This document shows positions 3,729 through 22,284 of a DNA stretch of 64,000 bases, piece after piece. Position numbers and translations under genes: made by a program. Location of the stretch: positions 960,001 through 1,024,000 of the forward strand of contig CBDCVR010000015.1 in NCBI GenBank assembly GCA_965223155.1, in the 5' to 3' direction. Below the pieces are notes generated by a model. The model was not told the DNA's origin. It saw nothing but the letters and a program-made list of their open reading frames with translations, and did not search any database. The DNA comes from Candidatus Multivoradales bacterium. GTDB taxonomy: Bacteria > Acidobacteriota > Thermoanaerobaculia > Multivoradales > JAHEKO01. Positions within the stretch are counted from its first letter, which is position 1. Each line of letters begins with the position of its first letter.

Positions 3729-6700
3729 GTGAGGCCCGACATGCTGAGATGTCTAGGCCTTCGAGTTGCATCGATCTCGAAAAGGCTGCTCAACCATCGA
3801 CCGACCATCCCATCCGCCACCTCAATCGTCGAATTGCGTTTCCGCGAACGCGCCGGCCGGCGCCGCCAGGCGGCCCGGCTGTTGCTCCTCGCGGCGAGCG
3901 GGATCGCCTTCCTCTGGGCCACCCCGGCGGCGGCCCAGAACAACTGCTTCGGGGACGTCACCTGGGGCGGCGACGTCGACTCGACGATCGCAAAGCCCGA
4001 GAACTGCACCGCGGACACCCGCTGCTATCCACCCGAGCTTGCCGGCTCGGGAGTTTCGTTCGCTCCGGGCTGCGACCCATCGGCCGGGCCCTGCGACGTC
4101 ACCGTCACGGCCCAGCTCCGCTTCCCCGGCAACCGGGACAACGAAGACTTCGTCGATGCCTCGGGCCTCGCCTACAGCTTCGCGACCTTTGCCGTCTTCG
4201 ACAACACCGGCTCCGGCGTCGGCGGCTGCGGTGTTGCCGGCGCGGTCATCCAATGGGACACCGGCACCGCGACCATCCGCGGCCAGGCCAAGAAGGGCGA
4301 CATCTTCACCATCGTCGCCCGCGCCTGCCCGTGCTCGCCCGAAGGCCTCTGCCCCCTGTGCGAGAAGACCGAGTCCTTCGTCATCCCGATCGGCAGCCCG
4401 CCGCCCCAGGACGACTGCGACGACTGCAAGGCCTGCCCGCTGCCGGGCGCTTCGGCCGGCGGCGGCGGGCCCAAAGGGACCACCGAAACCAACTCCGGCC
4501 CCGAGACGCTCGTCTACTACACCGCCGGCGGCACGGGCGCGCCCGGCACCCCCGGCGCCGACGAGCACGCGGCCACTCTCGGCCACGGCTTTGCCCACAA
4601 CTTCTCCGAGCGGCTCGTCGCCGTCCCCGACGACCCGTACGACAGCGACCGCATCTGGATGCTGACCCGCAAGGGCACCTTCCGCCAGTTCTGGAACCTC
4701 CAGGGCGGCGAGTACCTGGGCACCGCGCCCTCGGACGAGTACCGCACGCTCTTTGCCACGGCCGCGGGCTACGAGCTTCGCGGCCTCGACGGCACGGTCC
4801 AGAGCTTCGATGCCGCCGGCGTCTGGACCGGCACGGCCGACGCCTCGGGCAACGCCACGACCCCTGCCTACGACGCCTCCGGTCTTCTCACCGCAGTCGC
4901 TCTCCCCGACGGCAGACAAGAGACCTTCACCTATCATCCGGCCGGCTCCGGCCAGGACGGCAAGCTCGCCACGATCACCGAGGTCGGCATCGACGGCACC
5001 TCGACCTTGACCTGGACCTACACCTGGTCCGGAGACACCCTCGTCCGGATCGACGCCCCGGACGGCACCGCTCTCGCCTACGGCTACGACGACCCGCGCC
5101 ACCCGGGCTTTCGAACTCTGACCGAACGGATCGGCACCGACGCGAGCCGCCGCGTCGAGCGCGGCTACGCCTACGACGACGAGGGCAACGTCGTCCAGAC
5201 CTGGAGAGGCGATACCGTCCCCGCCGTTGCCGGAGTGAGCGCTTCGCTGCCCGGATCGAACGCCGTCGATCACGAGACCTTCGCCTTCGACGACCCGGTC
5301 AACCCGACCGTCACCACCAGGACCGACGCTCTCGGCAAGATCGCGACCTACGCCATCGGCCGCGACCCTTCGAGCGGCAAGGCCCGCGTGACCTCGATTG
5401 CGGGCGACTGCCCGGCCTGCGGCCTCGGTCCCAACAGCCAGCTCCTCTACGACGACCCGGACCATCCGCTGCTTCCCACTCGCTCGATCGACGGCCGCGG
5501 CACGGTCACCGCCATGACCTACGACGGCAACGGCAGGATGACCTCGCGCACGGAGGCCCTCGGCACCCCCGAGGAGCGCACCACGACCTGGAGCTACGAC
5601 GATCCCGCCTTCCCGGCCGTCGCGACCACCATCGAGGAGCCCTCCACAACTGCTGGAGCCAGCCGCACCACCACCCTCGTTCTCGGCGCCGACGGCCACC
5701 CCACCACCCGCACCGTCTCAGGGGTCGAGGCCGCTAGCGCCTTCTCGCTGACCACCACCACCACCTACACCCCCGAGGGCCAGGTCGCAACGATCGATCC
5801 CCCCGGCTTCGGCTCCGACGACGTCACCGGCTTGACCTACGACCCCGCCCGCGGAGGCCAGATCCCGCTTTCCCGCACCGACCCGATCGTCGGAAGCCTT
5901 CCCAACGGCGGCGCCACCACCTTCGGCTATGACCCCTTCAACCGCAGAACCTCGGTCACCGACCCCAACGGGCTCGAGACCGTCACCGCCTACGATGCCG
6001 CCGACCGCGTGACCTCCGTCACCCAGAAGGGCGCGACCGCCGCCGAGGATCTCGTCACCGTCCATCAGTACACCCCCTTCGGCGACTTGGAGCGCACCAT
6101 CCTCCCCGAAGGCAACGCCATCGAGTACGCCTACGACTCCGCCGGACGCCTGACCTCGATCGGGCGCGGCCCCGCCCCCGGGGCCCTCCTCGAAAGGACC
6201 CTCTACGAGCTCGACGCCGCCGGCAACCGCACCCGCGAGACGCTCCAGGGCTTCGACGGCTCGGCCTGGACCACCGCCTCCGAGACCGCCTACCTCTACG
6301 ACTCCCGATGCCAGCTCGACAAGATCGTCCGCGCCCCCGGAACCCCCCAAGAAGCCGTCACCGAGTACCGCTACGACTGCAACGGCAACCTCGAATCCCT
6401 CTGGGACGCCAACCACTCCTCGGCCTCCGATCCCCCGACCCAGAGCTACACCTACGACCGCCTGGACCGGTTGACCGCCATCGACCAGCCCTGGGCAACT
6501 GGGCAACCAGGAGAGATGGCAACCACCACCTACGCCTACGACGTCCAGGACCACCTCGTTGCCGTCACCGACGCCGAGGGCAACACCACCGCCTACGTCT
6601 ACTCCGACCGGGATCTTCTGACCCGCCAGGACTCCCCCGTCTCCGGGGCCTCGACCTTTGCCTACAACGACCACGGCGAGCTCGTCTCCGAAACCGACGG

Positions 6701-8636
6701 CCGCGGGGTCACCACCACCCGAACCGTCGATGCCCTAGACCGGGTGACCTTCGTCGATTCCGAAGAGAACGCCCTCGATACCGCCTACACGTACGACGAC
6801 CCCGCCGTTGCCTTCTCGGCGGGCAGGCTCACGGCCATCACCCGAGACACCCAGTCGATTGACTACGCCTACGACCGCTTCGGACGCACCATCCAGGACG
6901 GCACCCTCGCCTACGCCTACGACACGAACGGCAACCGCACCGACGTCACCTACCCAGGCGGCGTCGCCGCCACGACCACCCACGACTACGCCGACCGGGA
7001 GGAGACCCTGGCCGTCACGGATGGCGCAACCTCGACCAACCTCGTCACCGCCGCCGCCTATCTCCCCTCGGGCCCCCTCACCTCCCTCGCCCTCGGCAAC
7101 GGCTTGGCCGAGACCCGATCCTTCGACTCGAGGTACTTCCCGTCATCCATCACCGTCCCCGGACGCCTCGACTGGACCTACTCGACCGACACGATCGGCA
7201 ACATCCTAGAGATCGCAGACTCAGGAGGAGGAGGCGACCGAACCTACACCTACCAGGACGTCCACTACTTCTTGACTTCAGGCACCGGCCCCTGGGGCGC
7301 TCTCGCCTTCACCTACGACAAGATCGGCAACCGGTTGTCTGAGACCCGGGACGCCGGCGGCTCTCCCCAGAACCGGCCCTACGCCTACCCGGCTTCGCCT
7401 TCCGGAGGCAACCTCCCCAAGCTCGCTTCGATCACGGACCCCGCGGGAGACCGTCTCGAGCGCTTCTTCTTCGACGACGCCGGCAACCAGACCTACCGCT
7501 CGACTCAGACCGCCAAGCACCGGCTGAGCTACGATGCTCTGGGACGGATGAGCCAGATCAAGACCGACTCGGACGAGACCGCCGGGGCCCTCGTCACCCT
7601 CGCCTACGACGGCAGGAGTTTCTTGAGGGAGGCCACTCGAAGCCCCTTCCCCGGCCAGCCCGCCACCGTCACCACCAGCCCCACCTACAGCTCCGACGGG
7701 CGCCTCATGCACAAGGCGACGAGCGAGGTGCTGGGACCGGAAAATCCCCGAGGCGAGGGGAGTGCCACGGCCGACGCCTACGTCCTCTACTTCGCCGGCA
7801 GGCCGGCCGGCATCCTCGAAAACGAGACCGTGACCCCGCTCGGTGGAACGCCCGCGAGCACCTCCACCCTCACCTATCTCACCACCGACCACCTCGGCAC
7901 CCCGGTCCTTGCCACCGACGACTCCGGCACCACCACCTGGGCCGGAGGCTTCGCACCCTTCGGGGACGACTGGCAGGCGCAGGCCGGTACCGGGGCGAGT
8001 GAGGCGGGAGTCTTCCTGCGCTTCCCGGGCCAGTGGGACGACCCGGCCTGGAGTGTCGAATCAACGGGAGGAACCGCAGACCTCTACTACAACGTCCACC
8101 GCTGGTACGAGCCGGGGACGGGCAGGTACGGGAGGGTGGATCCGGCGGGACAAGATTCATACGCACGGTACAAGTTCTCCGGGCTTCCACCCAACCTTAC
8201 ATATGCGTATGCTGACCTGAACCCACTTCAGCATCTGGATCGTCTGGGCCTGAAGGTGGAGAAATGCGGCCGGCCAGCTGACCTTCCAGTAATTGGCGTT
8301 CTTGGTCTGAAGCACAACTGGTTGAAGACTGATACCCGTCAGGGCGGCATGGGACGAGCAGGGGGCGAGATCCCTGGACACGGACGTTGCGATTGTCCAT
8401 ATGCTCAGACCGAAGTCGTCGATCACAGCAACGAAACAGGCCCGGAGGTCACTTGCTTCGAGATTAGAGACATCGACGAAGATTGCGTAAACCAAGCCAT
8501 CGGAGCGGGGCAAAAGACTGGGCCTTGGATACCGGGCGCCAACGATTGCTGGACATTCGTCGACCAGGTAATCAACAAATGTCGCACCGACAACTTCAAT
8601 CGTGGCCGGCCCGGCTGGCGCGAAAGCCCACTCTAA
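3729..8636 (+). CDS. Full-length Rhs protein copy B: signal peptide, Cys-rich N-domain, YD core, tip CT2 (permuted papain-like candidate)
   Basis: RRRQAARLLLLAASGIAFLWATPAAA/Q signal-like segment; LGHGFAHNF (DUF6531-like); YD repeats; RYGRVDP...DRLGL. True start may be downstream of 3729. Confidence 0.9.
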   Translation: MRPDMLRCLGLRVASISKRLLNHRPTIPSATSIVELRFRERAGRRRQAARLLLLAASGIAFLWATPAAAQNNCFGDVTWGGDVDSTIAKPENCTADTRCYPPELAGSGVSFAPGCDPSAGPCDVTVTAQLRFPGNRDNEDFVDASGLAYSFATFAVFDNTGSGVGGCGVAGAVIQWDTGTATIRGQAKKGDIFTIVARACPCSPEGLCPLCEKTESFVIPIGSPPPQDDCDDCKACPLPGASAGGGGPKGTTETNSGPETLVYYTAGGTGAPGTPGADEHAATLGHGFAHNFSERLVAVPDDPYDSDRIWMLTRKGTFRQFWNLQGGEYLGTAPSDEYRTLFATAAGYELRGLDGTVQSFDAAGVWTGTADASGNATTPAYDASGLLTAVALPDGRQETFTYHPAGSGQDGKLATITEVGIDGTSTLTWTYTWSGDTLVRIDAPDGTALAYGYDDPRHPGFRTLTERIGTDASRRVERGYAYDDEGNVVQTWRGDTVPAVAGVSASLPGSNAVDHETFAFDDPVNPTVTTRTDALGKIATYAIGRDPSSGKARVTSIAGDCPACGLGPNSQLLYDDPDHPLLPTRSIDGRGTVTAMTYDGNGRMTSRTEALGTPEERTTTWSYDDPAFPAVATTIEEPSTTAGASRTTTLVLGADGHPTTRTVSGVEAASAFSLTTTTTYTPEGQVATIDPPGFGSDDVTGLTYDPARGGQIPLSRTDPIVGSLPNGGATTFGYDPFNRRTSVTDPNGLETVTAYDAADRVTSVTQKGATAAEDLVTVHQYTPFGDLERTILPEGNAIEYAYDSAGRLTSIGRGPAPGALLERTLYELDAAGNRTRETLQGFDGSAWTTASETAYLYDSRCQLDKIVRAPGTPQEAVTEYRYDCNGNLESLWDANHSSASDPPTQSYTYDRLDRLTAIDQPWATGQPGEMATTTYAYDVQDHLVAVTDAEGNTTAYVYSDRDLLTRQDSPVSGASTFAYNDHGELVSETDGRGVTTTRTVDALDRVTFVDSEENALDTAYTYDDPAVAFSAGRLTAITRDTQSIDYAYDRFGRTIQDGTLAYAYDTNGNRTDVTYPGGVAATTTHDYADREETLAVTDGATSTNLVTAAAYLPSGPLTSLALGNGLAETRSFDSRYFPSSITVPGRLDWTYSTDTIGNILEIADSGGGGDRTYTYQDVHYFLTSGTGPWGALAFTYDKIGNRLSETRDAGGSPQNRPYAYPASPSGGNLPKLASITDPAGDRLERFFFDDAGNQTYRSTQTAKHRLSYDALGRMSQIKTDSDETAGALVTLAYDGRSFLREATRSPFPGQPATVTTSPTYSSDGRLMHKATSEVLGPENPRGEGSATADAYVLYFAGRPAGILENETVTPLGGTPASTSTLTYLTTDHLGTPVLATDDSGTTTWAGGFAPFGDDWQAQAGTGASEAGVFLRFPGQWDDPAWSVESTGGTADLYYNVHRWYEPGTGRYGRVDPAGQDSYARYKFSGLPPNLTYAYADLNPLQHLDRLGLKVEKCGRPADLPVIGVLGLKHNWLKTDTRQGGMGRAGGEIPGHGRCDCPYAQTEVVDHSNETGPEVTCFEIRDIDEDCVNQAIGAGQKTGPWIPGANDCWTFVDQVINKCRTDNFNRGRPGWRESPL

Positions 8637-8661
8637 GCGGGCAGCCAGATCGAACGCGGTA

Positions 8662-8895
8662 GTGACTGGGCGAATTGCACTCTGGATCCTCGGGCTTGTG
8701 GGAACGTCGGGCTTTTTTTATAGCCTCTCCGGGGCGCTGCAGGCCGCATGGCTCAGTGCCACACCTGGCTATCCGATCGAAAGAGCTCGGTACAACTTCG
8801 CCGCGTGGAGTCTGGCTTGCTTGGTGTTTCTGGGCCTCATCCTATTCGTCGTCTTTCGCCTCTACAGGACTCGGAACCGAGAAAACAACACATAG
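8662..8895 (+). CDS. Small two-TM membrane protein, putative immunity for CT2
   Basis: Directly after the copy B stop; two hydrophobic helices; GTG start inferred within ORF 8602-8895. Confidence 0.55.
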   Translation: MTGRIALWILGLVGTSGFFYSLSGALQAAWLSATPGYPIERARYNFAAWSLACLVFLGLILFVVFRLYRTRNRENNT

Positions 8896-8907
8896 TCTCG
8901 CCATCGA

Positions 8908-10234
8908 GCCCTACGCCTACCCGGCCTCGCCTTCCGGAGGCAACGTTCCGAAACTCGCCTCGATCGCCGATCCGTCAGGAAACGCCTCCGAGCGCTTCTT
9001 CTTCGACGACGCCGGCAACGAAACCTACCGCGCCACCCAGACCGCCAAGCACCGCCTGAGCTACGATGCCCTGGGACGGATGAGCCAGATCAAGACCGAC
9101 TCCGACGAGACCGCGGGGGCCCTCGTCACCCTCGCCTACGACGGCAGGAGCTTCTTGCGCCAAGCCGCCCGGAGCCCCTTTCCCGGCCAGCCCGCCACCG
9201 TCACCACCCGCCCCACCTACACCTCCGACGGGCTCTTGATGCACAAGGAGACCTCCGAGGTCTTGGGACCCGAGGATCCCCGAGGCGAGGGATCGGCAAC
9301 CAGCGACGCCTACGTCCTCTACTTCGCCGGCAGGCCGGTAGGCATCCTCGAGAACGAGACCGTGACGCCCCTGGGCGGCGGCACAACCTCGAGCTCCACG
9401 TTGACGTACTTGACCACCGACCACCTCGGCACCCCGGTGCTGGCCACCGACGACTCCGGCGCCACCATCTGGGCCGGAGGCTTCGAGCCGTTTGGAGCAG
9501 ACTGGCAGGCACAGGCCGGTACCGGGGCGAGTGAGGCGGGCGTCTTTCTGAGGTTTCCCGGGCAATGGGACGATGCGGCCTGGAGCGGGGCGGGAGCGGG
9601 GGCGGGGGCCGCTAGCGCCTCAGACCCGGGTCTCTACTACAACGTCCACAGGTGGTACGAGTACGGGACGGGGAGGTATGGGAGGGTCGATCCGCTGGGG
9701 CTTGAGGGAGGTGGCCTCAATCTCTTTCTTTACGCTACCGCCAACACTCCCCGAGTGACAGATGCGCTCGGCCTGGAGGCTAGGGTCGATCCCGCTCTCC
9801 AACCGTATGTAGACTGCGCGAAGCAGGCTCCCTTCTTTGACATGGCATGGAAGTGGCTCGAACAGTCACCCGGAATCTGGGACATCAGACCGATCGACCA
9901 AGGCCCGAACTTGCATAAGGGTCGGACTCTTCCCAGGGACAAGAACCATGGCACGCCAGATTGCAAAGCTGGTGGTCGGATCTTTCCCGACGACCGACGA
10001 CGGGAGTACTTCAGCCCTGAGGCGGCTTGCAGGCCAGTCGTTGAGTCGATCGCTCACGAAGTCATAGAGGTGTTCGCCTTCTGCTATCTGAACATGGACG
10101 ACAACGCCGCTCACACGTTTGTGGAACGCGGTGACTTTGACGACTCGGAGGATCAGTACAACCGAGGTGTCGATGATTCGACGGCTGAAATCGGCTGCAG
10201 GTCGTGCAAGTGCAAGCGTGCCCTCGGACGCTAG
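8908..10234 (+). pseudogene. Orphan Rhs module (3' core plus tip CT3 with HEVIE...H motif)
   Basis: Core homology starts abruptly at PYAYPASPSGGN (~8908) with no start codon or RBS; DALGL is followed by a unique tip. Confidence 0.75.
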
Positions 10235-10257
10235 GTGATACCGGAAGGTCGATCTGC

Positions 10258-11007
10258 ATGAGTAGCTCGCTGCATCGACTTACCCTTGCCTTTGTGCTGT
10301 TTCTTGCCTCTAGTTGGGCCCTGTACTATTTGGCTCCTCGATGGCCCTTCGTCGTCGCGTACTCCGACTTCCATTCTCTTGGCGTCCCTGATCCGATGTG
10401 GCGGTTGTCGAGGGAACCTACGGGGTGGCCGTTGACTCTGTCTCGTGGTCTGCTCTCAGGTTGTGTGGGCGGTCTCTTGAGTAGTGTGAGCCTGTTCAGG
10501 CGAGACTTGACTAAGGCTGCTGCGCTTTCGATTTCAGTCTTGCTGGTAGCGGCCGTTATGCTCCTCACATATCCACTTGCCCGCTCGCTCTGTCTGGCCG
10601 GACGCCACGACGGAGAGGCCTCGATCTTCGTAGAGTTTGGCGGCTCCCCCATTCAGCTTGAGTTGCGGAACCAGCGTTCCTCTTATGAGCTTACTGGACC
10701 GCAGCCAAACTCCTGGTTCGTTGGAGCGAAGCTATGTCAAATAGAGTTCAAGACAGGCCACGAGTCTCTGAACGTAGCCCGAGAGACCGGTCTGTTGTCA
10801 TTGCCGCCCGTCCTTGAGCTGGAGTCGACGTTTCCTCATGACTTGGTCCGAATAACGATCGTGTCTGAAGAGTACTCGAATACGGTCCTAGGGGTACGGG
10901 GTGGGGGTCGCCACAGTAGGAGAGTCAACCGCATCCTTGATCGCATGTCACGCTACACAGGGCTCGCCGACTTGAACGTGGACGACAGGTGCTCGACAGG
11001 TACCTAG
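10258..11007 (+). CDS. Membrane protein with soluble C-domain, putative immunity for CT3
   Basis: GGAAGG RBS-like sequence before ATG 10258; 2-3 N-terminal TM segments; low GC; follows CT3. Confidence 0.55.
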   Translation: MSSSLHRLTLAFVLFLASSWALYYLAPRWPFVVAYSDFHSLGVPDPMWRLSREPTGWPLTLSRGLLSGCVGGLLSSVSLFRRDLTKAAALSISVLLVAAVMLLTYPLARSLCLAGRHDGEASIFVEFGGSPIQLELRNQRSSYELTGPQPNSWFVGAKLCQIEFKTGHESLNVARETGLLSLPPVLELESTFPHDLVRITIVSEEYSNTVLGVRGGGRHSRRVNRILDRMSRYTGLADLNVDDRCSTGT

Positions 11008-11404
11008 CTCCCCATCTGCATCCCAGTGTCAAGAGCTGCCTCGAGACGTAGGTTCCACTCATTAGGCGGCGGTCTGTCAAGGGCACGGCTGTTCCTCCCG
11101 GCCTGGTCGGTCGGTTCGCGTTATGGGCAAGGTAGGTTCGGTAGCGCTTGGTTTCGGGTCTCTCGAGGTGGAGTCGATGACGCTCCATCCACTCATCAGG
11201 ATCTAGGCCGAGAGAGATTGGTGCCAGGCCTGCAAGATGCAAGCTGAGTGTACCCACCTGGGAAATCCGGTGACAGGATACCTATTTCAAGGGAAGAATC
11301 CGGCCGCAAAGGGACACTCGAAATATGTATCCTTCTATGAGTCGGTCGGTTGGCGTCAAGAGTTTCGTTTCTTCTTTTTGTAGTTTTCCTTAGGTTTGGA
11401 TCGA

Positions 11405-11589
11405 GGCTTGGGACGAGCTTCTATTCGCACTCTGTAGGGTTCTTCTTTGAACCGGTGCATGGTGAGTTTTGCGTCCGTTTAGGAATCGATGCTCCCATCT
11501 GTCACACGGTGTCGGGGCCACCAAGGATACTTTCGGAGTCATCGAACCTCTCAATCCGTCCTTGCTTGTTGGTCGTCTAGTTATCTCTT
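11405..11589 (-). ncRNA. Predicted bridge/seek RNA in the 3' non-coding end of the IS
   Basis: Two internal-loop hairpins. 11481-11549 carries GUAUCCU and GUGACAG (target matches). 11411-11476 carries AUAGAAG (donor match) and CUCACCA (5/7 donor match). Transcript ends are unknown. Confidence 0.8.
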
Positions 11590-12603
11590 CTACGCTGCCT
11601 TGGGAAAGGCTCGGAAGCTCTCACCTGTCACCCACAGCCTGTGGAGCAACACCGCGATCTTCCTAGCTAGCGCGACCACGGCCTTGCCCTTACCCAGCCT
11701 CTCGACCAGGCCCTCAGCCCATCTCTTGAGTGACGACTCTTTGCGACAGTTCAACGCCGCATGAGCTGCCTGCACCAAGAGTCTGCGCATCTCCGAGTCG
11801 CCCTCGCGAGTGATCCGGCCCCTGACCTCATGCCCTCCTGAGCTGCGAAGCGACGGTCTCAAGCCCAGACACGCTCCGACGTCGCGGCTTTTCTCGAACC
11901 GATCCGGACGATCCATCCAGCCGACGAACGCAAGGCTCACCAGAGGCCCCACACCAGGAACCGTCTGCAGCCGACGGACCAGCTCGTTTGATCTCGACTC
12001 GGAGATGAGGTCGTCTTCGAGATGGTGGATCCGATCGGTCAGCTCGCCGATTGTCGTTACCAGAGGTTCGAGCGCTCCCAACAGGCCGGCTTCGACCGAC
12101 ATCGACGCGTACCGAGCCACGAAGCTCTTCGCCGGACATGAGGGCACTCGGTAGCCCTGTGCCCGCAGCGTTCCGCGTACGGAGTTGATCAGCGAGGTCC
12201 TGGTCTTCACCAGACTCGTTCGGACCCGAAGACGCGTCCGAAGCTCTTGGGCCTCACCTGTGCGCTGGTAGACTGGTCGAAGCAAACCCAGATCCAACCG
12301 GCTCAAACGAGCCAGGATCTCGGCGTCGATTCCGTCCGTCTTCAGGGTCGATTCCGCGATCAGACGTACCCGGCGTGGATTGACCACCATCACCTCATGG
12401 CCGAGCTCAGACAGCAGTCGATAGACCCAGGGTGTGACCGGACCGCTCTCGAGCGTCACCTGCGAGCGTTCCCGATTGGCGAAGAACCTTCGCAGGCCCG
12501 TCTCGGTCGTCGGAACCCGCCGGCGAACCGTCACCTCACCGTCTTCTGATACGCCACACACCTCGCTGTACTTCGAGTGAACATCGATGCCAAGATACTC
12601 CAT
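11590..12603 (-). CDS. IS110-family DEDD recombinase/transposase (337 aa)
   Basis: YLGIDVH, TLESG and KTDGIDA (DEDD RuvC-like); C-terminal LRSSGG serine motif; AAGGAG RBS before ATG 12603. Confidence 0.95.
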   Translation of the reverse strand: MEYLGIDVHSKYSEVCGVSEDGEVTVRRRVPTTETGLRRFFANRERSQVTLESGPVTPWVYRLLSELGHEVMVVNPRRVRLIAESTLKTDGIDAEILARLSRLDLGLLRPVYQRTGEAQELRTRLRVRTSLVKTRTSLINSVRGTLRAQGYRVPSCPAKSFVARYASMSVEAGLLGALEPLVTTIGELTDRIHHLEDDLISESRSNELVRRLQTVPGVGPLVSLAFVGWMDRPDRFEKSRDVGACLGLRPSLRSSGGHEVRGRITREGDSEMRRLLVQAAHAALNCRKESSLKRWAEGLVERLGKGKAVVALARKIAVLLHRLWVTGESFRAFPKAA

Positions 12604-12681
12604 GGTCGGTCTCCTTTCTCGGCTCTGATGCCGATTCTTGGTTATCTCCAACTGGCACAGTGTCCCAGCTGGAGACCGACC
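12604..12681 (-). promoter_or_regulatory. Internal inverted repeat able to sequester the transposase RBS
   Basis: GGTCGGTCTCC (12604-12614) and GGAGACCGACC (12671-12681) are perfect 11-bp complements covering the GGAG SD. Confidence 0.6.
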
Positions 12682-12709
12682 GACTCATCTCATCTGTCAC
12701 CGAATTCGC

Positions 12710-15700
12710 CCTCGATTGCGGGCGACTGCCCGGCCTGCGGCCTCGGACCCAACAGCCAGATCTTCTACGACGACCCGGACCATCCGCTGCTCCCTACCCG
12801 CTCGATCGACGGCCGCGGCACGGTCACCGCCATGACCTACGACGGCAACGGCAGGATGACCTCGCGCACGGAGGCGCTCGGCACCCCCGAGGAGCGCACC
12901 ACGACCTGGAGCTACGACGATCCCGCCTTCCCGGCCGTCGCGACCACCATCGAGGAGCCCTCCACAACTGCTGGAGCCAGCCGCACCACCACCCTCGTTC
13001 TCGGCGCCGACGGCCACCCCACCACCCGCACCGTCTCAGGGGTCGAGGCCGCTAGCGCCTTCTCGCTGACCACCGCCACCACCTACACCCCCGAGGGCCA
13101 GGTCGCAACGATCGATCCCCCCGGCTTCGGCTCCGACGACGTCACCGGCTTGACCTATGACCCCGCCCGCGGAGGCCAGATCCCGCTTTCCCGCACCGAC
13201 CCGATCGTCGGAAGCCTTCCCAACGGCGGCGCCACCACCTTCGGCTACGACCCCTTCAACCGCAGGACCTCGGTCACCGACCCCAACGGGCTCGAGACCG
13301 TCACCGCCTACGATGCCGCCGACCGCGTGACCTCCGTCATCCAGAAGGGCGCGACCGCCGCCGAGGATCTCGTCACCGTCCATGAGTACACCCCCTTCGG
13401 CGACTTGGAGCGCACCATTCTCCCCGAAGGCAACGCCATCGAGTACGCCTACGACTCCGCCGGACGCCTGACCTCGATCGGGCGCGGCCCCGCCCCCGGG
13501 GCCCTCCTCGAAAGGACCCTCTACGAGCTCGACGCCGCCGGCAACCGCACCCGCGAGACGCTCCAGGGCTTCGACGGCTCGGCCTGGACCACCGCCTCCG
13601 AGACCGCCTACCTCTACGACTCCCGATGCCAGCTCGACAAGATCGTCCGCGCCCCCGGAACCCCCCAAGAAGCCGTCACCGAGTACCGCTACGACTGCAA
13701 CGGCAACCTCGAATCCCTCTGGGACGCCAACCACTCCTCGGCCTCCGATCCCCCGACCCAGAGCTACACCTACGACCGCCTGGACCGGTTGACCGCCATC
13801 GACCAGCCCTGGGCAACTGGGCAACCAGGAGAGATGGCAACCACCACCTACGCCTACGACGTCCAGGACCACCTCGTTGCCGTCACCGACGCCGAGGGCA
13901 ACACCACCGCCTACGTTTACTCCGACCGGGATCTTCTGACCCGCCAGGACTCCCCAGTCTCCGGGGCCTCGACCTTTGCCTACAACGACCACGGCGAGCT
14001 CGTCTCCGAAACCGACGGCCGCGGGGTCACCACCACCCGGACCATCGACGCCGCCCGCAGGGTGACCTTCGTCGATTCCGAAGAGAACGCCCTCGATACC
14101 GCCTACACGTACGACGACCCCGCCGTTGCCTTCTCGGCCGGACGCTTGACCGCTATCTCCCGCAACGGCCACTCCATCGACTACGCTTACGACCGCTTCG
14201 GACGCACCATCCAGGACGGCACCCTCGCCTACGCCTACGACACGAACGGCAACCGCACCGCAGTCACCTACCCAGGCGGCGTCACCGCCACGACCACCCA
14301 CGACTACGCCGACCGGGAGGAGACCCTGGCCGTCACGGATGGCGGCAGCGGAGGAGGCACCACCAACCTCGTGACCGCCGCCGCCTATCTCCCCTCGGGC
14401 CCCCTCACCTCCCTCGCCCTCGGCAACGGCTTGGCCGAGACCCGATCCTTCGACTCGAGGTACTTCCCGGCCGGCATCACCGTCCCCGGACGACTCGACT
14501 GGACCTACTCGACCGACACGATCGGCAACATCCTAGAGATCGCTGACACCGGAGGAGGAGGCGACCGAACCTACACCTACCAGGACGTCCACTACTTCCT
14601 CACCTCGGGCACCGGACCCTGGGGCAGCCTGGCCTTCACCTACGACAAGATCGGCAACCGGTTGTCTGAGACCCGGGACGCCGGCGGTTCTCCCCAGAAC
14701 CGGCCCTACGCCTACCCGGCTTCGCCTTCAGGAGGCAACCTCCCCAAGCTCGCCTCGATCACGGACCCCGCGGGAGACCGTCTCGAGCGCTTCTTCTTCG
14801 ACGACGCCGGCAACCAGACCTACCGCGCCACTCAGACCGCCAAGCACCGGCTGAGCTACGATGCCCTGGGACGGATGAGCCAGATCAAGACCGACTCGGA
14901 CGAGACCGCCGGGGCCCTCGTCACCCTCGCCTACGACGGCAGAAGCTTCCTCCGGGAGGCCACTCGAAGCCCCTTCCCCGGCCAGCCCGCCACCGTCACC
15001 ACCAACCCCACCTACAGCTCCGACGGGCGCCTCATGCACAAGGCGACGAGCGAGGTGCTGGGACCGGACGACCCGAGAGGCGAGGGGAGTGCCACCAGCG
15101 ACGCCTACGTCCTCTACTTCGCCGGCAGGCCGGCCGGCATCCTCGACAATGAGACCGTAATTCCACTCGGTGGACCGCCGACCAGCACCTCGACCCTCAC
15201 CTACTTGACCACCGACCACCTCGGCACCCCCGTCCTCGCCACCGACGCCAGTGGAGCCAGTACCTGGAGTGGAGGCTTTGAGCCCTTCGGGGACGACTGG
15301 CAGGCGCAGGCCGGTACCGGGGCGAGTGAGGCGGGGGTCTTTCTGAGGTTTCCCGGGCAATGGGACGATGCGGCCTGGGGCGGGGCGGGAGCGGGGGCGG
15401 GGGCCGCTAGTGCCTCAGACCCGGGCCTCTACTACAACGTCCACAGGTGGTACGAGCCGGGGACGGGGAGGTATGGGAGGGTCGATCCGCTGGGGTTGGT
15501 TGCTGATATCCATCTCTATCGCTACGCGAAGCAGGACCCCTTGACTTGGATCGATCCTCTCGGGTTGCAGCTTGTGAAACCTCCTGACATTCCGTACTTT
15601 GAGTCACCTGGCGACAGCCTACCCCCCAACTGTTCGGCTGGACCCTGGGTCTTCGATGGCTTCGGCGTTCGGAGTGGGCCTCAAAAAATCCGCTGGGTGC

Positions 15701-16014
15701 TCAGGCGCGCTCAACGAAAATGGGTGCGGATCCCACCTGCTTTTGGCATAGCACTACCAATCCCGACCGGCAGTTGTGACTGCTTCTATGTACCAGAGGG
15801 AGCGATCCGACCGAACCAAAGGCTTGAACGTTGGAAGCGTCGTCTTGAGTGCGATGGCTGCCCACTAGATGAGGAAGTGCGAGAGCGACCCGGGACCGGC
15901 CCTGAAAATGAGTGGGAGGATCGTTCTCCAGTTCTTCCGACCTCAGGCGTCCGAAAGATTTCCGCCCCTGGGTGCATTTGCCCACCAGTGCTCGATGAAA
16001 AGCTACCCTCCTAG
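12710..16014 (+). pseudogene. 5'-truncated Rhs copy C with tip CT1' (allelic variant of CT1)
   Basis: Homology to copy B starts at SIAGDCPACG, ~2 bp after the palindrome arm. The ORF-track start (12577) lies inside the IS. Frame is intact to the stop. Confidence 0.8.
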
Positions 16015-16849
16015 GATTCCTGGGCGACCTCGCCCGCACCCCATCCGAGCCCTCTACTGTCTCGCTGCGCTCTTGGCGTGGAATTGTGGGAACAACGAAA
16101 CAAGCCCCGACTTCCCTTCGGCGTTTTCGGCCCTCTATTTCAAATCCGAGCACTATGAGGTGGGAGATACCTTCGACCAGGAACTTCGTCTCCTTGCTCC
16201 GATCCGCTGGCCTGAAGCTGCGAAACTCTTTCATGAAGCATGGCGCGGCGACCCACGAGCCGGACTTGCCCTTCAACGTCTCTATGAACACAAAGGCTTT
16301 CCTACCGCAGCAGCTCTCTTCGCGCTCGCCTCACGCAACGCCATCAACGTGCCAGACCTACTGCCTGCTTGGTCACAGCTCGGGGGTGCGTCTGAGTTGT
16401 ACTCCGATCTTGAGGGTGAGGTGGCCCGAGCGGCCTTCCGTGGAGACTGTGCCAGAGCGGTCGGCCTCGCCCAACCGGTCGTACTCGACTCGGAAGTAGG
16501 CCCCAGCCTGCAACTACTCGTGGAATGGGCTCACGCAGTGGTCTGTTCGTCGAGTCGAGCTTCCAGGGACCTTCATTTCGCTAATCTGGAAGCCGCTGTT
16601 CGCATCTATTCGTCACTAGTCGCAGAAGCTAGGGTGATCCCGACCATGTACGCAAACGATCAGCTGTCAGCGTGGACGCAGCTTTCAGGGGCCCTTTCGG
16701 AGCTAGAGCAACCCGCCCTCGCAAGCGCGGCTCTTTCTCTTGGACTTCAACTGTCTCCAAAGGCAGAACCGAGTCGAACAAGACAGATAGAACGGCGCGC
16801 TCGCTACTTGAGGAAGAAAGCTGACAGGGCGCGCGACACACCCGGCTGA
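15995..16849 (+). CDS. Putative lipoprotein immunity protein for CT1'
   Basis: ATG 15995 overlaps the Rhs end; lipobox-like LAWNC; shares motifs with 2299-3078 (WP.AA.LF...W.GD..AG..L..LYE.KGF.T.AA; VEWA; LEAA.R.Y..LV). Confidence 0.65.
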   Translation: MKSYPPRIPGRPRPHPIRALYCLAALLAWNCGNNETSPDFPSAFSALYFKSEHYEVGDTFDQELRLLAPIRWPEAAKLFHEAWRGDPRAGLALQRLYEHKGFPTAAALFALASRNAINVPDLLPAWSQLGGASELYSDLEGEVARAAFRGDCARAVGLAQPVVLDSEVGPSLQLLVEWAHAVVCSSSRASRDLHFANLEAAVRIYSSLVAEARVIPTMYANDQLSAWTQLSGALSELEQPALASAALSLGLQLSPKAEPSRTRQIERRARYLRKKADRARDTPG

Positions 16850-16853
16850 GCGC

Positions 16854-17234
16854 GGCACGTCCTGGACCACCACCTCCGAGACCGCCTACCTCTACGACTC
16901 CCGATGCCGGCTCGACCGGATCGTCCGCGCCCCCGGAACCCCCCAGGAGGCCATCACCGAGTACCGCTACGACTGCAACGGCAACCTCGAGTCCCTCTGG
17001 GACGCCAACCACGACTCCGCCTCCGACCCCCCGACCCAGAGCTACACCTACGATCGGCTCGACCGCCTGACCGCCATCGCCCAGCCCTGGGCAACTGGGC
17101 AACCAGGAGAGATGGCCACCACCACCTACGCTTTATGGAACACGTTCCAGGACTGCAATCAGAAATGTGGCAAGCTATGCGGCCCGGATGAGCCTTGCTC
17201 AGATCAATTTCAGTCAGTAGCTGCAGGCAACTGA
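16854..17234 (+). pseudogene. Second copy of the Rhs fragment plus Cys-rich tip remnant
   Basis: Matches 3131-3430 at offset 13804, with ~80 bp more core sequence at the 5' side. Confidence 0.7.
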
Positions 17235-17237
17235 CAA

Positions 17238-17501
17238 ATGCGTGCTCGACCTGCTTCTTGGCTGTCTCCACGAAGTGCTGTTGTTGTGCTTGTCCTTGTA
17301 TTCCTCGCCGGCTGTTGGTGGCGTATGGGACTGCTAGAGAAGGCTCTCGTCCTTCGCGATGTGGTCGGCATTGAAGTGGAGAAGCTGGACACAGCGCTGG
17401 ATCGCGTGTGGTTTGTGGTTGGCTCGCCTTTGGCGTTCCTGGCTATTGGCCTGGCACTCTTGGGACTAGCGCACATCCTGCTTCGTGTTCTGTCTAGATA
17501 A
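17238..17501 (+). CDS. Small two-TM membrane protein (duplicate of 3434-3697)
   Basis: Identical translation. Confidence 0.55.
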   Translation: MRARPASWLSPRSAVVVLVLVFLAGCWWRMGLLEKALVLRDVVGIEVEKLDTALDRVWFVVGSPLAFLAIGLALLGLAHILLRVLSR

Positions 17502-17532
17502 GCGTCGCTGCTCGTGGAGTGATGCTCTTTAG

Positions 17533-20500
17533 GTGAGGCCCGACATGCTGAGATGTCTAGGCCTTCGAGTTGCATCGATCTCGAAAAGGCTGCTCAACCA
17601 TCGACCGACCATCCCATCCGCCACCTCAATCGTCGAATTGCGTTTCCGCGAACGCGCCGGCCGGCCCCGCCAGGCGGCCCGGCTGTCGCTCCTCGCGGCA
17701 GCCGGCACGGCTTTCCTCTGGGCCACCCCGGCGGCGGCCCAGAACAACTGCTTCGGGGACGTCACCTGGGGCGGCGACGTCGACTCGACGATCGCAAAGC
17801 CCGAGAACTGCACCGCGGACACCCGCTGCTATCCACCCGAGCTTGCCGGCTCGGGAGTTTCGTTCGCTCCGGGCTGCGACCCGTCGGCCGGGCCCTGCGA
17901 CGTCACCGTCACGGCCCAGCTCCGCTTCCCCGGCAACCGGGACAACGAAGACTTCGTCGATGCCTCGGGCCTCGCCTACAGCTTCGCGACCTTTGCCGTC
18001 TTCGACAACACCGGCTCCGGCGTCGGCGGCTGCGGTGTTGCCGGCGCGGTCATCCAATGGGACACCGGCACCGCGACCATCCGCGGCCAGGCCAAGAAGG
18101 GCGACCTCTTCACCATCGTCGCCCGCGCCTGCCCGTGCTCGCCCGAAGGCCTCTGCCCCCTGTGCGAGAAGACCGAGTCCTTCGTCATCCCGATCGGCAG
18201 CCCGCCGCCCCAGGACGACTGCGACGACTGCAAGGCCTGCCCGCTGCCAGGCGCTTCGGCCGGCGGCGGCGGGCCCAAAGGGACCACCGAAACCAACTCC
18301 GGCCCCGAGACGCTCGTCTACTACACCGCCGGCGGCACGGGCGCGCCCGGCACCCCCGGCGCCGACGAGCACGCGGCCACTCTCGGCCACGGCTTTGCCC
18401 ACAACTTCTCCGAGCGGCTCGTCGCCGTCCCCGACGACCCGTACGACAGCGACCGCATCTGGATGCTGACCCGCAAGGGCACCTTCCGCCAGTTCTGGAA
18501 CCTCCAGGGCGGCGAGTACCTGGGCACCGCGCCCTCGGACGAGTACCGCACGCTCTTTGCCACGGCCGCGGGCTACGAGCTTCGCGGCCTCGACGGCACG
18601 GTCCAGAGCTTCGATGCGGCCGGCGTCTGGACCGGCACGGCCGACGCCTCGGGCAACGCCACGACCCCTGCCTACGACGCCTCCGGTCTTCTCACCGCGG
18701 TCGCTCTCCCCGACGGCAGACAAGAGACCTTCACCTACCACCCGGCCGGCTCCGGCCAGGACGGCAAGCTCGCCACGATCACCGAGGTCGGCATCGACGG
18801 CACCTCGACCTTGACCTGGACCTACACCTGGTCCGGAGACGAGCTCGTCCGGATCGACGCCCCGGACGGCACCGCTCTCGCCTACGCCTACGACGACCCG
18901 CGCCACCCGGGCTTCCGGACTCTCACCGAGCGGATCGGCACCGACACCAGCCGCCGCGTCGAGCGCGGCTACGCCTACGACGACGAGGGCAACGTCGTTC
19001 AGACCTGGAGAGGCGACACCGTTCCCGCCGTCGCTGGAGTGAGCGCTTCGCTGCCCGGGCCCGCCGCCGTCGATCACGAGACCTTCGCCTTCGACGACCC
19101 GGTCAACCCGGCGGTGACCACCCGGACCGACGCTCTCGGCAAGATCGCGACCTACGCCATCGGCCGCGACCCTTCGAGCGGCAAGGCCCGCGTGACCTCG
19201 ATTGCGGGCGACTGCCCGGCCTGCGGCCTCGGACCCAACAGCCAGCTCGTCTACGACGACCCGGACCATCCGCTGCTCCCTACCCGCTCGATCGACGGCC
19301 GCGGCACGGTCACGGCCATGGCCTACGACGCCAACGGCCGCATGACCTCGAGGACCGAAGCCCTCGGCACCCCTGAGGAGCGCACCACGACTTGGAGCTA
19401 CGACGATCCGGCCTTCCCGGCCGTCGCCACCACAATCGAAGAGCCCTCGACAACTGCCGGAGCCAGTGGAGCCAGCGGAGCCAGCCGCACCACGACCCTC
19501 GTTCTCGGCGCCGACGGCCATCCCACCACCCGCACCGTCTCGGGAGTCGAGGCCGCAAGCGCCTTCTCGCTTACCACCACCACTACCTACACCGCCGAGG
19601 GCCAGATCGAGACGATCGATCCGCCCGGCTTCGGCACCGACGACGTCACCGCCTTTACCTACGACCCCGCCCGGGGCGGCCAGATCCCACTCTCCCGCAC
19701 CGACCCGATCGTCGGAAGCCTCCCGAACGGCGGCGCCACCACCTACGCCTACGACCCCTTCAACCGCCGAACCTCGGTCACCGACCCCAACGGCGTCGAG
19801 ACCGTCACCGCCTACGACGCCGCCGACCGCGTGACCTTCGTCACCCACAAGGGCACGACCGCCGCCGAGGACCTCGTCACCGAGAACCGCTACAACGCCT
19901 TCGGGGACCTCGCCCTCACCATCCTGCCTCAAGGCAACGCCATCGAGTACGCCTACGACGACACCGGACGCTTGACCTCGATCGGACGCGGTCCCGCCCC
20001 CGGGACCCTCCTCGAGAGGACCCTCTACGAGCTCGACGCCGCCGGCAACCGCACCCGCGAGACGCTTCAATCCTTCGACGGCACGTCCTGGGTCACGACC
20101 TCCGAGACCGCCTACCTCTACGACTCCCGATGCCGGCTCGACCGGATCGTCCGCGCCCCCGGAACCCCCCAGGAATCCGTCACCGAGTACCGCTACGACT
20201 GCAACGGCAACCTCGAGTCCCTCTGGGACGCCAACCACGACTCGGCCTCGGATCCTCCGACCCAGAGCTACACCTACGACCGGCTCGACCGCCTGACCGC
20301 CATCGCCCAGCCCTGGGCCGGAGCGGGGGCCGGCTCTGCCACCACCACCTACGCCTACGACGTCCAGGACCACCTCGTCGCCGTCACCGACGCCGAGGGC
20401 AACACCACCGCCTACGTCTACTCCGACCGGGATCTCCTGACCCGTCAGGACTCTCCCGTCTCAGGGGTTGCCACCTTCGCCTACAACGACCACGGCGAGC

Positions 20501-22284
20501 TCGTCTCCGAGACCGACGGCCGAGGCGTCACCACCACCCGGACCGTTGACGCTCTCGACCGCGTCACCTTCCTCGACTCCGACGAGAACGCTCTTGACAC
20601 CACCTACACCTACGACGACCCCGCCGTTGCCTTCTCGGCCGGACGCCTGACCGCCATCTCCCGCAACGGCCATTCCATCGACTACCGATACGACCGCTTC
20701 GGACGCACCACCCAGGACGGCACCCTCGCCTACGCCTACGACGCGAACGGCAACCGCACCGGCGTCACCTACCCGGGCGGAGTCTCCGTCACGACCACCC
20801 ACGACTACGCCGACCGGGAGGAGACCCTGGCCGTCACGGATGGTGGCGCCGGGGGAGGGACCACCAGCCTCGTCTCCGCCGCCACCTACCTCCCCTCGGG
20901 CCCGCTCACCTCCCTCGTCCTCGGCAACGGTCTTACCGAGACCCGAGCCTTCGACCCCCGGTACTTCCCGGCCGGGATCTCCGTTCCCGGACGCCTCGAC
21001 TGGGCCTACGCGACCGACTCGCTCGGCAACATCCTCCAGATCGCAGATGCCGGTCCAGGCCCGGACCGCACCTACACCTACCAGGACGTCCACTACTTCC
21101 TGACCTCGGGCACCGGGCCCTGGGGCTCTCGTGCCTTCACCTACGACAAGATCGGCAACCGGCTCTCTGAGACCCGGGACGGCACTGCTGACTCCTACGC
21201 CTACCCGGCCTCCCCCTCCGGAGGCAACCTCCCCAAGCTCGCGACGATCGCTACGGGAAACACCGCCTCCGAGCGCTTCTTCTTCGACGACGCCGGCAAC
21301 GAAACCTACCGCGCCACCCACACCGCCAAGCACCGGCTGAGCTACGATGCCCTGGGACGGATGAGCCAGATCAAGACTGACTCGGGCGAGACCGCGGGGG
21401 CCCTCGTCACCCTCGCCTACGACGGCAGGAGCTTCTTGCGCCAAGCCGCCCGAAGCCCCTTCCCCGGCCAGCCCGCCACCGTCACCACCAACCCCACCTA
21501 CTCCTCCGACGGGCTTCTCATGCACAAGGAGACGACCGCGGTCTTGGGACCCGAAGATCCCCGAGGCGAGGGCAGCGCCATCAGCGACGCCTACGTCCTC
21601 TACTTCGCCGGCAGGCCCGTCGGCATCCTCGAGAACGAGACCGTGACCCCGCTCGGCGGATCGCCCGCGAGCACCTCCACCCTCACCTATCTCACCACCG
21701 ACCACCTCGGCACCCCGGTCCTTGCCACCGACGACTCCGGCACCACCACCTGGGCCGGAGGCTTCGCACCCTTCGGGGACGACTGGCAGGCGCAGGCCGG
21801 TACCGGGGCGAGTGAGGCGGGAGTCTTCCTGCGCTTCCCGGGCCAGTGGGACGACCCGGCCTGGGGCGGGGCGGGAGCGGGGTCCGCTAGCGCCTCAGAC
21901 CCTGGCCTCTACTACAACGTCCACAGGTGGTACGAGCCGGGGACGGGGAGGTATGGGAGGGTCGATCCGTTGGGGTTCCGACAGGGAACCGAACCGTTCC
22001 TGTACTCCCGCAACAATCCCGTCGTCTGGGCTGACCCGCTAGGCCTCGCGCCTTGCGAGTGCACGGATGCGTGCCCTAGCGGGGAGTGGACCTATGTCGG
22101 TGCGTCAGGCGGATTTGGATTTGGCGGAGGCCTAGCAGGCCAATGGGGCACCTTTCATTGCAACGGCAAACCTGAGGTCGACGTCCCTGTGAAGGCCGTG
22201 TGTGGCGTGCTCGGCTTCGCAGAAGACGGAAGATCAGCTGCTGCGTTCGATCAATTGGCGAGACAACAGTATGCGGCTCTTTGA
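17533..22284 (+). CDS. Rhs protein copy D with signal peptide; tip CT4 apparently truncated at ~22218
   Basis: N-terminus nearly identical to copy B; diverged core. After DPLGL, ~58 aa of Cys/Gly-rich tip run into glycosyltransferase-derived DNA. Confidence 0.85.
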   Translation: MRPDMLRCLGLRVASISKRLLNHRPTIPSATSIVELRFRERAGRPRQAARLSLLAAAGTAFLWATPAAAQNNCFGDVTWGGDVDSTIAKPENCTADTRCYPPELAGSGVSFAPGCDPSAGPCDVTVTAQLRFPGNRDNEDFVDASGLAYSFATFAVFDNTGSGVGGCGVAGAVIQWDTGTATIRGQAKKGDLFTIVARACPCSPEGLCPLCEKTESFVIPIGSPPPQDDCDDCKACPLPGASAGGGGPKGTTETNSGPETLVYYTAGGTGAPGTPGADEHAATLGHGFAHNFSERLVAVPDDPYDSDRIWMLTRKGTFRQFWNLQGGEYLGTAPSDEYRTLFATAAGYELRGLDGTVQSFDAAGVWTGTADASGNATTPAYDASGLLTAVALPDGRQETFTYHPAGSGQDGKLATITEVGIDGTSTLTWTYTWSGDELVRIDAPDGTALAYAYDDPRHPGFRTLTERIGTDTSRRVERGYAYDDEGNVVQTWRGDTVPAVAGVSASLPGPAAVDHETFAFDDPVNPAVTTRTDALGKIATYAIGRDPSSGKARVTSIAGDCPACGLGPNSQLVYDDPDHPLLPTRSIDGRGTVTAMAYDANGRMTSRTEALGTPEERTTTWSYDDPAFPAVATTIEEPSTTAGASGASGASRTTTLVLGADGHPTTRTVSGVEAASAFSLTTTTTYTAEGQIETIDPPGFGTDDVTAFTYDPARGGQIPLSRTDPIVGSLPNGGATTYAYDPFNRRTSVTDPNGVETVTAYDAADRVTFVTHKGTTAAEDLVTENRYNAFGDLALTILPQGNAIEYAYDDTGRLTSIGRGPAPGTLLERTLYELDAAGNRTRETLQSFDGTSWVTTSETAYLYDSRCRLDRIVRAPGTPQESVTEYRYDCNGNLESLWDANHDSASDPPTQSYTYDRLDRLTAIAQPWAGAGAGSATTTYAYDVQDHLVAVTDAEGNTTAYVYSDRDLLTRQDSPVSGVATFAYNDHGELVSETDGRGVTTTRTVDALDRVTFLDSDENALDTTYTYDDPAVAFSAGRLTAISRNGHSIDYRYDRFGRTTQDGTLAYAYDANGNRTGVTYPGGVSVTTTHDYADREETLAVTDGGAGGGTTSLVSAATYLPSGPLTSLVLGNGLTETRAFDPRYFPAGISVPGRLDWAYATDSLGNILQIADAGPGPDRTYTYQDVHYFLTSGTGPWGSRAFTYDKIGNRLSETRDGTADSYAYPASPSGGNLPKLATIATGNTASERFFFDDAGNETYRATHTAKHRLSYDALGRMSQIKTDSGETAGALVTLAYDGRSFLRQAARSPFPGQPATVTTNPTYSSDGLLMHKETTAVLGPEDPRGEGSAISDAYVLYFAGRPVGILENETVTPLGGSPASTSTLTYLTTDHLGTPVLATDDSGTTTWAGGFAPFGDDWQAQAGTGASEAGVFLRFPGQWDDPAWGGAGAGSASASDPGLYYNVHRWYEPGTGRYGRVDPLGFRQGTEPFLYSRNNPVVWADPLGLAPCECTDACPSGEWTYVGASGGFGFGGGLAGQWGTFHCNGKPEVDVPVKAVCGVLGFAEDGRSAAAFDQLARQQYAAL

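Follow-up and report, generated by a model that had tools for sequence, protein, structure and literature searches.

The IS-A element and its predicted guide RNA

The stretch of 64,000 nucleotides analysed in this work, referred to below as the window, comes from the genome of a Candidatus Multivoradales bacterium (assembly GCA_965223155.1, contig CBDCVR010000015.1, positions 960,001 to 1,024,000), an assembly of 4.0 Mb in 15 contigs with 66.5% G+C that is called G000 here. At window positions 11334-12695, on the minus strand, lies an IS110-family insertion sequence (IS) of 1362 bp, including one copy of its CT core (12694-12695), which we named IS-A and which occupies the insertion site GTATCCTGTCAC. 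Its transposase carries the Pfam domains DEDD_Tnp_IS110 (PF01548, 8.5e-25) and Transposase_20 (PF02371, 4.5e-21), and scores 241 bits, against a cut-off of 140, with the NCBIfam model NF033542, "IS110 family RNA-guided transposase". The protein is 337 aa long, as are most homologues among the matches listed. Candidate catalytic positions (numbered as in IS-A) were compared in a set of 16 homologues with 58-100% identity; E52, D90, D93 and S255 do not vary there, D7 and G256 hardly do, and the motif GLRPSLRSSG fits the pattern GL-P----SG published for IS110-family/IS1111-type transposases (Siddiquee et al., 2024, PMC11187229).

The two non-coding stretches of the element are unequal in length, with 256 nt downstream of the gene (11334-11589) versus 92 nt upstream (12604-12695). 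The subterminal inverted repeats measure 13 bp, inside the range of 7-17 bp, with terminal extensions, given for the IS1111 group (Durrant et al., 2024, PMC11208160). By the layout of gene and non-coding stretches, the repeats, the protein length, the transposase motif and the order of the loop arms described below, IS-A is assigned to the IS1111 branch of the IS110 family.

For 93% of IS1111 elements a bridge RNA has been predicted in the right end (PMC11208160), and the long form of the published seekRNAs measures 145-170 nt (PMC11187229). In IS-A, the minimum-free-energy fold of 11334-11589, read in the sense of the transposase gene, contains two hairpins inside a closing stem, which together make up a predicted bridge or long seek RNA (Table 1). 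Every stem, loop word and junction coordinate that a sequence-only reading of the window had described was found where that reading had placed it.

The structure was examined in an alignment of 34 distinct RNAs (MAFFT), for which RNAalifold called four helices with 23 pairs, corresponding to 782 cells. Paired cells amounted to 94.6% of the 782, as against 30-53% when the 3' partners were slid by 1-3 columns; changes on both sides of a pair were seen in 85 cells, as against 6-20 in the slid controls, and in 9 of the 23 pairs; and the covariation score of the stems was reached by none of 500 shuffles. Within hairpin 2, compensatory changes occur in the outer stem, and the inner stem is invariant in 34/34 RNAs. 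G-U pairs account for 53 cells, including one invariant U-G pair, and since such cells would be C-A mismatches on the opposite strand, they support the transposase-sense strand as the RNA. The closing stem was not called by RNAalifold in this alignment because MAFFT misaligns the flanks; read by eye and uncounted, it shows the variants GGAUCG/CGAUCC and GGAUGA/UCAUCC in relatives. An Rfam 15 scan of 10800-13200, with E up to 1, placed no family over the RNA and returned one chance match resembling a small nucleolar RNA within the transposase gene (E 0.83).

Both arms of the internal loop in hairpin 1 match the target over seven of seven bases, one arm for each strand, and hairpin 2 holds the candidate donor guides (Table 1). 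Within the element, the reverse complement of GTATCCT occurs at 11524 only and CTTCTAT at 11418 only, while CTGTCAC is found at 11499 and once more at 11625. The right target guide does not pair with the sixth base of its half-site, the C of GTCACC. The word CATCTGTCAC is present at both 11496-11505 and 12691-12700. In published seekRNAs of the IS1111 type, as in IS-A, the arm that matches the top strand is placed 5' and the arm that matches the bottom strand 3', and in the IS110 type this order is reversed (PMC11187229). The second occurrence of core plus right half-site, CTGTCACC at 11625-11632, falls in the 3' part of the transposase gene and is probably due to chance.

Table 1. Features of IS-A, its predicted RNA and its insertion site (window coordinates).
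Feature	Position	Strand	Sequence or remark
Left target half plus core, GTATC + CT (GTATCCT)	11327-11333	+	Adjoins element; G(T/C)ATCCT in 14/14 full copies
Right target half, GTCAC	12696-12700 (12696-12701 with the C conserved in the host repeat)	+	GTCACC in 15/15 insertions and 17/17 empty sites
Subterminal inverted repeat, element 3' end	11337-11349		ATGAGTCGGTCGG; 3 bases in from end; reverse complement of 12676-12688
Subterminal inverted repeat, element 5' end	12676-12688		CCGACCGACTCAT; 7 bases in from end
Transposase gene	11590-12603	-	337 aa; ATG at 12603, stop 11590-11592
Predicted bridge / long seek RNA	11401-11556	-	~156 nt; closing stem encloses both hairpins
Closing stem	11556-11549 with 11408-11401	-	GGAUUGAG with CUCGAUCC; minimum-free-energy fold and alignment read by eye
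Hairpin 1, predicted target-binding loop	11486-11545	-	
Hairpin 1 outer stem	11545-11535 with 11495-11486		UCGAUG 11545-11540, bulged A 11539, CUCC 11538-11535 with GGAG 11495-11492, CAUCGA 11491-11486
Hairpin 1 inner stem	11522-11519 with 11511-11508		GGUG with CACC
Left target guide	11530-11524	-	GUAUCCU; 5' arm of hairpin 1; 7/7 to left half plus core
Right target guide	11505-11499	-	GUGACAG; 3' arm of hairpin 1; 7/7, reverse complement of core plus right half
Candidate handshake bases	11498-11496	-	AUG; beside right target guide; 3/3 complementary to donor CAT, not to target ATC
Hairpin 2, predicted donor-binding loop	11411-11476	-	
Hairpin 2 outer stem	11476-11472 with 11415-11411		GGACG with CGUCC
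Hairpin 2 inner stem	11458-11455 with 11430-11427		GCAC with GUGC
Left donor guide (candidate)	11466-11460	-	CUCACCA; against left donor end CTCATCT, match at positions 1-4 and 6
Right donor guide (candidate)	11424-11418	-	AUAGAAG; 7/7 complementary to CT-TCTAT (core plus right donor end)
Predicted 5' leader fold	12590-12695	-	GUCGGUC of inverted-repeat segment pairs with GACCGAC just before AUG
Likely -35 box of a promoter formed on circularisation	11354-11359	-	TTGACG
Uninterrupted inverted copy of target hairpin	11262-11290	-	GAAATAG-GTATCCTGTCACC-GGATTTC; doublet with occupied site
Occupied target hairpin, split by IS-A	11320-11333 with 12696-12712		

Insertions and empty sites in the genome

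G000 contains 14 full copies of IS-A at approximately 100% identity and one split copy, together with 14 transposase reading frames that are open over their full length and whose proteins are 100% identical. All 15 insertions lie at G(T/C)ATCCT|GTCACC, the site that the guides match. The left word is GTATCCT in 13 of the 14 full copies and in the split copy, and GCATCCT in one full copy, where the guide U faces a G on the bottom strand and pairing is kept through a wobble. The sequence-only reading had named copies at sites unrelated to the guides as one of the observations that would speak against it, and none was seen among these 15. The uninterrupted 13-base word GTATCCTGTCACC occurs at 17 empty sites in the same genome, as against 0.24 expected for its first 12 letters; of the perfect sites, about one in two is occupied. 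A further nine 13-mers are one letter away from the target word, some of them in similar hairpins, and 0/15 insertions are found in these.

For two insertions the empty allele is present in the same assembly. Position C14:574419 is the empty allele of the insertion on contig C11, with flanks that match over 45 nt on both sides, and C14:366086 is that of the split copy on contig C7, with 30 nt on both sides. These exact empty alleles fix where the element begins and ends, and bear out the empty site GTATC-CT-GTCAC, which had been deduced earlier from the deletion of 11334-12695. Comparison of empty and occupied alleles indicates that insertion adds exactly 1362 bp, including one CT, without target duplication beyond the shared core. 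The presence of two pairs of empty and occupied alleles in one assembly points to recent movement.

The small contigs C7 and C11 represent alleles with the insertion, the large contig has the empty alleles of the same loci, and the sampled population is mixed for these insertions. The split copy itself (locus L210, G000:C7:10300-13300, at about 1115-2483 of that locus) is interrupted by a 1.37-kb insertion encoding a 435-aa transposase of the Mutator family (Transposase_mut). Among the contigs of four sequencing runs over 11000-13000, which cannot show rare forms, no joint across the element and no circle joint were found; contig depth inside the element was several-fold that of the flanks, with loose ends that represent other insertion sites.

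Natural reprogramming and covariation across relatives

A sibling element, IS-B, with 82% DNA identity to IS-A, is present in G000 in two copies (C15:372320-373624, locus L016, and C13:297857-299161, locus L017). Its terminal sequences and hairpin-2 loop words are the same as those of IS-A, and its hairpin-1 loops read AAAGGGU and GUGCCAG. The flanks of the two copies, AAAGG-GT ... CT-GGAACC and AAAGG-CT ... CT-GGCACC, are sites matching these altered loops, and the inner stem has changed in a compensatory manner from GGUGG/CACC to GGAGG/CUCC. Elements in two further genomes of the genus (G002 and G004) follow the same rule: one with loops AGUGGGU and GUGCCAG is flanked by AGTGG-GT ... CT-GGCACC, and one with GUAACCU and GUGACAG by GTAGC-CT ... 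CT-GTCACC, with matches of 6/7 and 7/7, respectively. Beside L017, in the opposite orientation, lies a 42-nt remnant of a 5' end of the sibling type (L019, G000:C13:299287-299328), which has GGAACC at its flank and follows an intact look-alike target, AAAGG-GT-GGTGCC.

The relation between loops and flanks was then measured across the family. An alignment of 16 transposases served to collect the loci, 79 of them in genome records and 80 in metagenome contigs. Anchoring on conserved sequence of the RNA and of the ends yielded 81 hits with 60 unique combinations of loop and flank, and one row was kept for each distinct loop. The 5' target loop (13 nt after ACUCCG) agreed with the reverse complement of its own 3' flank at 7.30 of 9 positions, compared with 4.39 (standard deviation 0.24) for shuffled pairs, in 27 rows and with 0/10,000 shuffles as high. 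For the 3' target loop (14 nt before GGGAGC) and its own 5' flank the values were 6.67/9 and 5.31, in 12 rows, again with 0/10,000. Covariation of guide and target across homologous copies, the check that had been proposed for the bridge/seek-RNA reading of this DNA, was therefore found, as was covariation of the stems.

The right half-site GGCAC and the guide GUGCCAG are common to most relatives down to approximately 50% protein identity, and the left half-site shows free variation. In nature, it is mainly the left guide that seems to be retargeted. From the reprogramming observed among natural elements we infer that IS-A would be programmable as well.

The donor-binding arms also vary along with the element. 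The right donor arm AUAAAAG accompanies the element end CATAAAAG in four loci, and the left donor arms CUCA, CCCA and CCAA accompany the 5' extensions ATGAG, ATGGG and ATTG(G/C/T), respectively. In the sequences compared, both arms of the donor loop covary with the element ends, the left one through four of its matching positions. The left arm mismatches the donor at positions 5 and 7 in IS-A and in close relatives with the same donor end; as the same two mismatches are kept, the incomplete match appears to be a trait of the family and not a sign of decay.

Element ends, host repeat and neighbourhood

The predicted 5' leader (12590-12695) folds with -48.2 kcal/mol (z -6.08), a value equalled by 0/200 shuffles, and both of its paired segments are also present in those relatives that were read. 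Such a fold would block translation of read-through transcripts. At the other end, a TTGAC box lies approximately 20 nt from the 3' terminus in IS-A and in every relative whose end was read, and it probably represents the -35 part of a promoter that becomes complete once the ends are joined. A promoter scan of 11100-12900 did not call the TTGACG box in the linear form; together with the terminator scan of the same region it gave one promoter-like site on the plus strand, which falls in the host repeat (11270-11299), and one terminator-like site, which is weak, and the RNA is explained by neither.

The target word makes up the loop in short hairpins, and their stems vary in a compensating manner, as in GAAATAG ... 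CTATTTC and GAAGACAGG ... CCTGTCTCC. These hairpins often occur as inverted doublets, 45-105 bp apart, with matching arms of 20 bp. When T or G was allowed at its fourth position, the word was present in 4/4 other genomes of the genus that were searched, in 3-18 copies each. Two further genera of the family have it as well, one with 13 copies and one with a single copy; searches of the remaining six genomes did not return it, and a reversed-pattern control gave 0-1. Two genomes have the word and no close transposase found with E up to 1e-30 (one of them is only 74% complete), and therefore the repeat appears to belong to the host lineage and to be exploited by the element. A classification of the target as a repetitive extragenic palindromic (REP) sequence of the type associated with REP-associated tyrosine transposases (RAYT) was considered and is not supported, as the single Y1_Tnp gene of G000 (C14:32014-32367) has no target motif within about 1 kb. 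The hairpins that flank this gene (locus L209) are several, G+C-rich and of the CCCCTCAAGGGG type, and they constitute a second, unrelated repeat family.

In the window, an array of RHS-repeat genes extends over 3729-22284 (3729-8636, 8675-10234, 12697-16014 and 17533-22284). IS-A and the hairpin doublet are located between two of these genes, at the 5' edge of a reading frame without a clear start. This RHS-repeat frame is open across the insertion site, and a search for a convincing start found none.

Unlike cores in sibling elements

The left target guide of the sibling elements (loci L016 and L017, and also L021, L129, L132, L140 and L157) has GU as its last two bases, and both of their right guides, for the target and for the donor, correspond to a CT core. 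The target-side junction is GT in 6 of 8 distinct sibling insertions, and the donor-side junction is CT wherever the 5' flank was found; among the empty IS-B look-alike sites of G000, three of four have GT. It is possible, if on present evidence rather doubtful, that several relatives including IS-B naturally recombine a target with a GT core and a donor with a CT core. If this were true, the right target guide would gain a base pair only once the donor strand arrives, a built-in bias towards insertion, and the enzymes would tolerate unlike cores, which could loosen a design rule for bridge recombinases.

Discussion

The observed anatomy of the locus, the site specificity, the exact empty sites, the insertion polymorphism and the covariation of guides with flanks and of stems lead us to consider that 11334-12695 is very probably an intact and recently active IS1111-type element with a genuine bridge/seek RNA in its 3' non-coding end. 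According to the mechanism that we propose, this end would provide an RNA of approximately 156 nt, in the transposase sense, with two internal-loop hairpins. The word GUAUCCU, which has the CT-strand sequence of the left half-site and core, would pair with the opposite strand, and GUGACAG would pair with the core and right half-site on the CT strand, so that both arms of hairpin 1 together would specify the 12-bp site GTATC-CT-GTCAC. The AUG that comes next in hairpin 1, after the right target guide, would pair with the donor CAT following strand exchange, as a handshake. In hairpin 2, AUAGAAG would pair with the core and right donor end, CT-TCTAT. In IS621, handshake pairing of the bases after the right target guide with the donor rather than with the target favours insertion (PMC11208158; PMC13626964). 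By analogy with ISEc11 and IS621, the element would be excised as a circle, whose joined ends would set the TTGAC box beside the 5' end and thereby allow one transcript to serve as transposase message and as RNA. A transposase tetramer with the RNA would then align the circle junction with a free target, and strand exchange would take place at the CT core without target duplication.

Several points weigh against this interpretation. The fold energy of the whole region 11334-11589 is ordinary (z -0.72), 47 of 200 shuffles folding as well, and the transcription, processing, protein binding and chemistry of the predicted RNA are ascribed to it by extension from its family. The anchors used in the family test pick relatives that keep the conserved stems, and matches came nearly all from loci with at least about 47% protein identity, most of the loci L059-L128 giving none; moreover, since relatives are not independent, the shuffle counts are not probabilities. 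As the right guide GUGCCAG is common to most relatives, the test of that guide comprises few independent changes, and its signal is carried by the variants GUGACAG, GUUCCAG, GAACCAG and GUACCUG only. On the donor side, the left guide matches in 5/7 positions only, and the right guide has no handshake, with CUC where GAU would be needed (0/3). The handshake suggested by the sequence-only reading stands beside the right target guide, where AUG meets donor CAT in 3/3 positions. Handshake bases in both loops are a trait of IS621 and do not define bridge or seek RNAs as a kind.

The donor side is also where the strongest alternative applies. Hairpin 1 could be the only guide, as in a short seekRNA, with hairpin 2 serving processing, stability or protein binding and the transposase reading the donor ends via the inverted repeats. 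In ISEc11 an 82-nt seekRNA alone gave 42% transposition, above the long form (PMC11187229), and as this form sufficed in the assay, the need for hairpin 2 in IS1111-type elements is not established by what is reported there. The imperfect left donor guide and the inner stem of hairpin 2, whose invariance would also fit a protein-binding site, are compatible with the same view. Yet the element ends and both arms of hairpin 2 vary together, AUAAAAG appearing with CATAAAAG and the left-arm variants with ATGAG, ATGGG or ATTGN, the right donor guide is complementary in 7/7 positions, and bridge RNAs with donor loops have been reported for IS1111 elements (PMC11208160). We consequently regard a role of hairpin 1 alone as unlikely, and favour an RNA in which both hairpins guide.

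A different view would make the resemblance of the loops a by-product, arising from target sequence carried into the element or from misdrawn ends, with the protein alone reading the target. It is indeed difficult to delimit the ends in the IS110 family, and target bases are part of some database entries (PMC11187229). In IS-A, the ends are fixed by the two exact empty alleles, the matching words lie 160-200 bases inside the element, within internal loops of a covarying structure, and they change with the flanks across 27 distinct loop variants; furthermore, each strand is matched by one of the arms, a pattern that would not result from a carried-over copy. This explanation is for these reasons highly improbable. 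Hardly any weight is left for a dead relic with an inactive RNA, to which the lack of a circle junction in the contigs might be thought to point (contigs cannot show rare forms), given 14 full copies that are practically identical, as many open transposase frames with the same protein sequence, and two insertions that are polymorphic against empty alleles of the same assembly.

What makes the locus interesting is how cleanly natural variation documents its bridge/seek RNA, together with the unlike target and donor cores noted in the sibling elements. With 15 insertions, 17 free sites, two pairs of insertion and empty allele, and a sibling with an altered target loop and an unaltered donor loop, one genome offers a natural reprogramming experiment. 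It extends RNA-guided recombinases to metagenome-assembled genomes of Acidobacteriota, the alignment of 34 RNAs could seed a covariance model, and for engineering it adds one more IS1111-type orthologue with a compact 5+2+5 target. IS-A had been called probably uncharacterised in the earlier reading. This holds for the element itself, in that a literature search for Thermoanaerobaculia and IS110 found no paper on it (the ortholog catalogues of PMC11208160 and PMC11187229 may list it or close relatives), but not for its kind, which is well described: IS-A adds a case to a mechanism published in 2024 and leaves knowledge of that mechanism unchanged.

Comparison with known systems

The IS110-family elements that target REP sequences, such as IS621, ISPpu9, ISPpu10 and ISPa11, resemble IS-A in using one orientation and one position of a short repeated palindromic host sequence. 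They differ in that the conserved 13 bases of the IS-A target are in the loop, with stems that vary, and in that the one Y1 transposase gene of G000 is flanked by a different hairpin family.

The bridge RNAs of IS621 and ISCro4 (Durrant et al., 2024, PMC11208160; Hiraizumi et al., 2024, PMC11208158) likewise have two internal loops, with the left guide in the sense of the CT strand and the right guide complementary to it. As in these systems, the CT core is inside the pairings of both target guides and of the right donor guide of IS-A, and handshake bases that would pair with the donor are located 3' of the right target guide. In contrast, the RNA of IS-A is at the other end of the element and its gene is inverted relative to the CT strand; its inverted repeats are long, its left target guide comprises 5+2 bases and its donor loop is without a handshake. 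Solved structures were found for the IS110-type proteins of IS621 and ISCro4 only, and these proteins are only distantly related to the IS-A transposase (E ~1e-10).

In layout, IS-A is also close to the IS1111-type seekRNA elements ISEc11, ISPa11, ISKpn4 and ISPst6 (Siddiquee et al., 2024, PMC11187229). What is new in IS-A is the host (Acidobacteriota, Thermoanaerobaculia) and the target. In IS-A, moreover, the second hairpin shows covariation with the donor. As in those elements, IS-A has the non-coding region downstream of the gene, a DEDD transposase within 330-350 aa, and subterminal inverted repeats with short terminal extensions, and it makes no target duplication. The approximately 156 nt of its predicted RNA are within the 145-170 nt of the long seekRNAs, and hairpin 1 alone would fit the short form. 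In both cases, one loop arm corresponds to each target strand, with the top-strand match placed 5', and reprogramming is seen among relatives.

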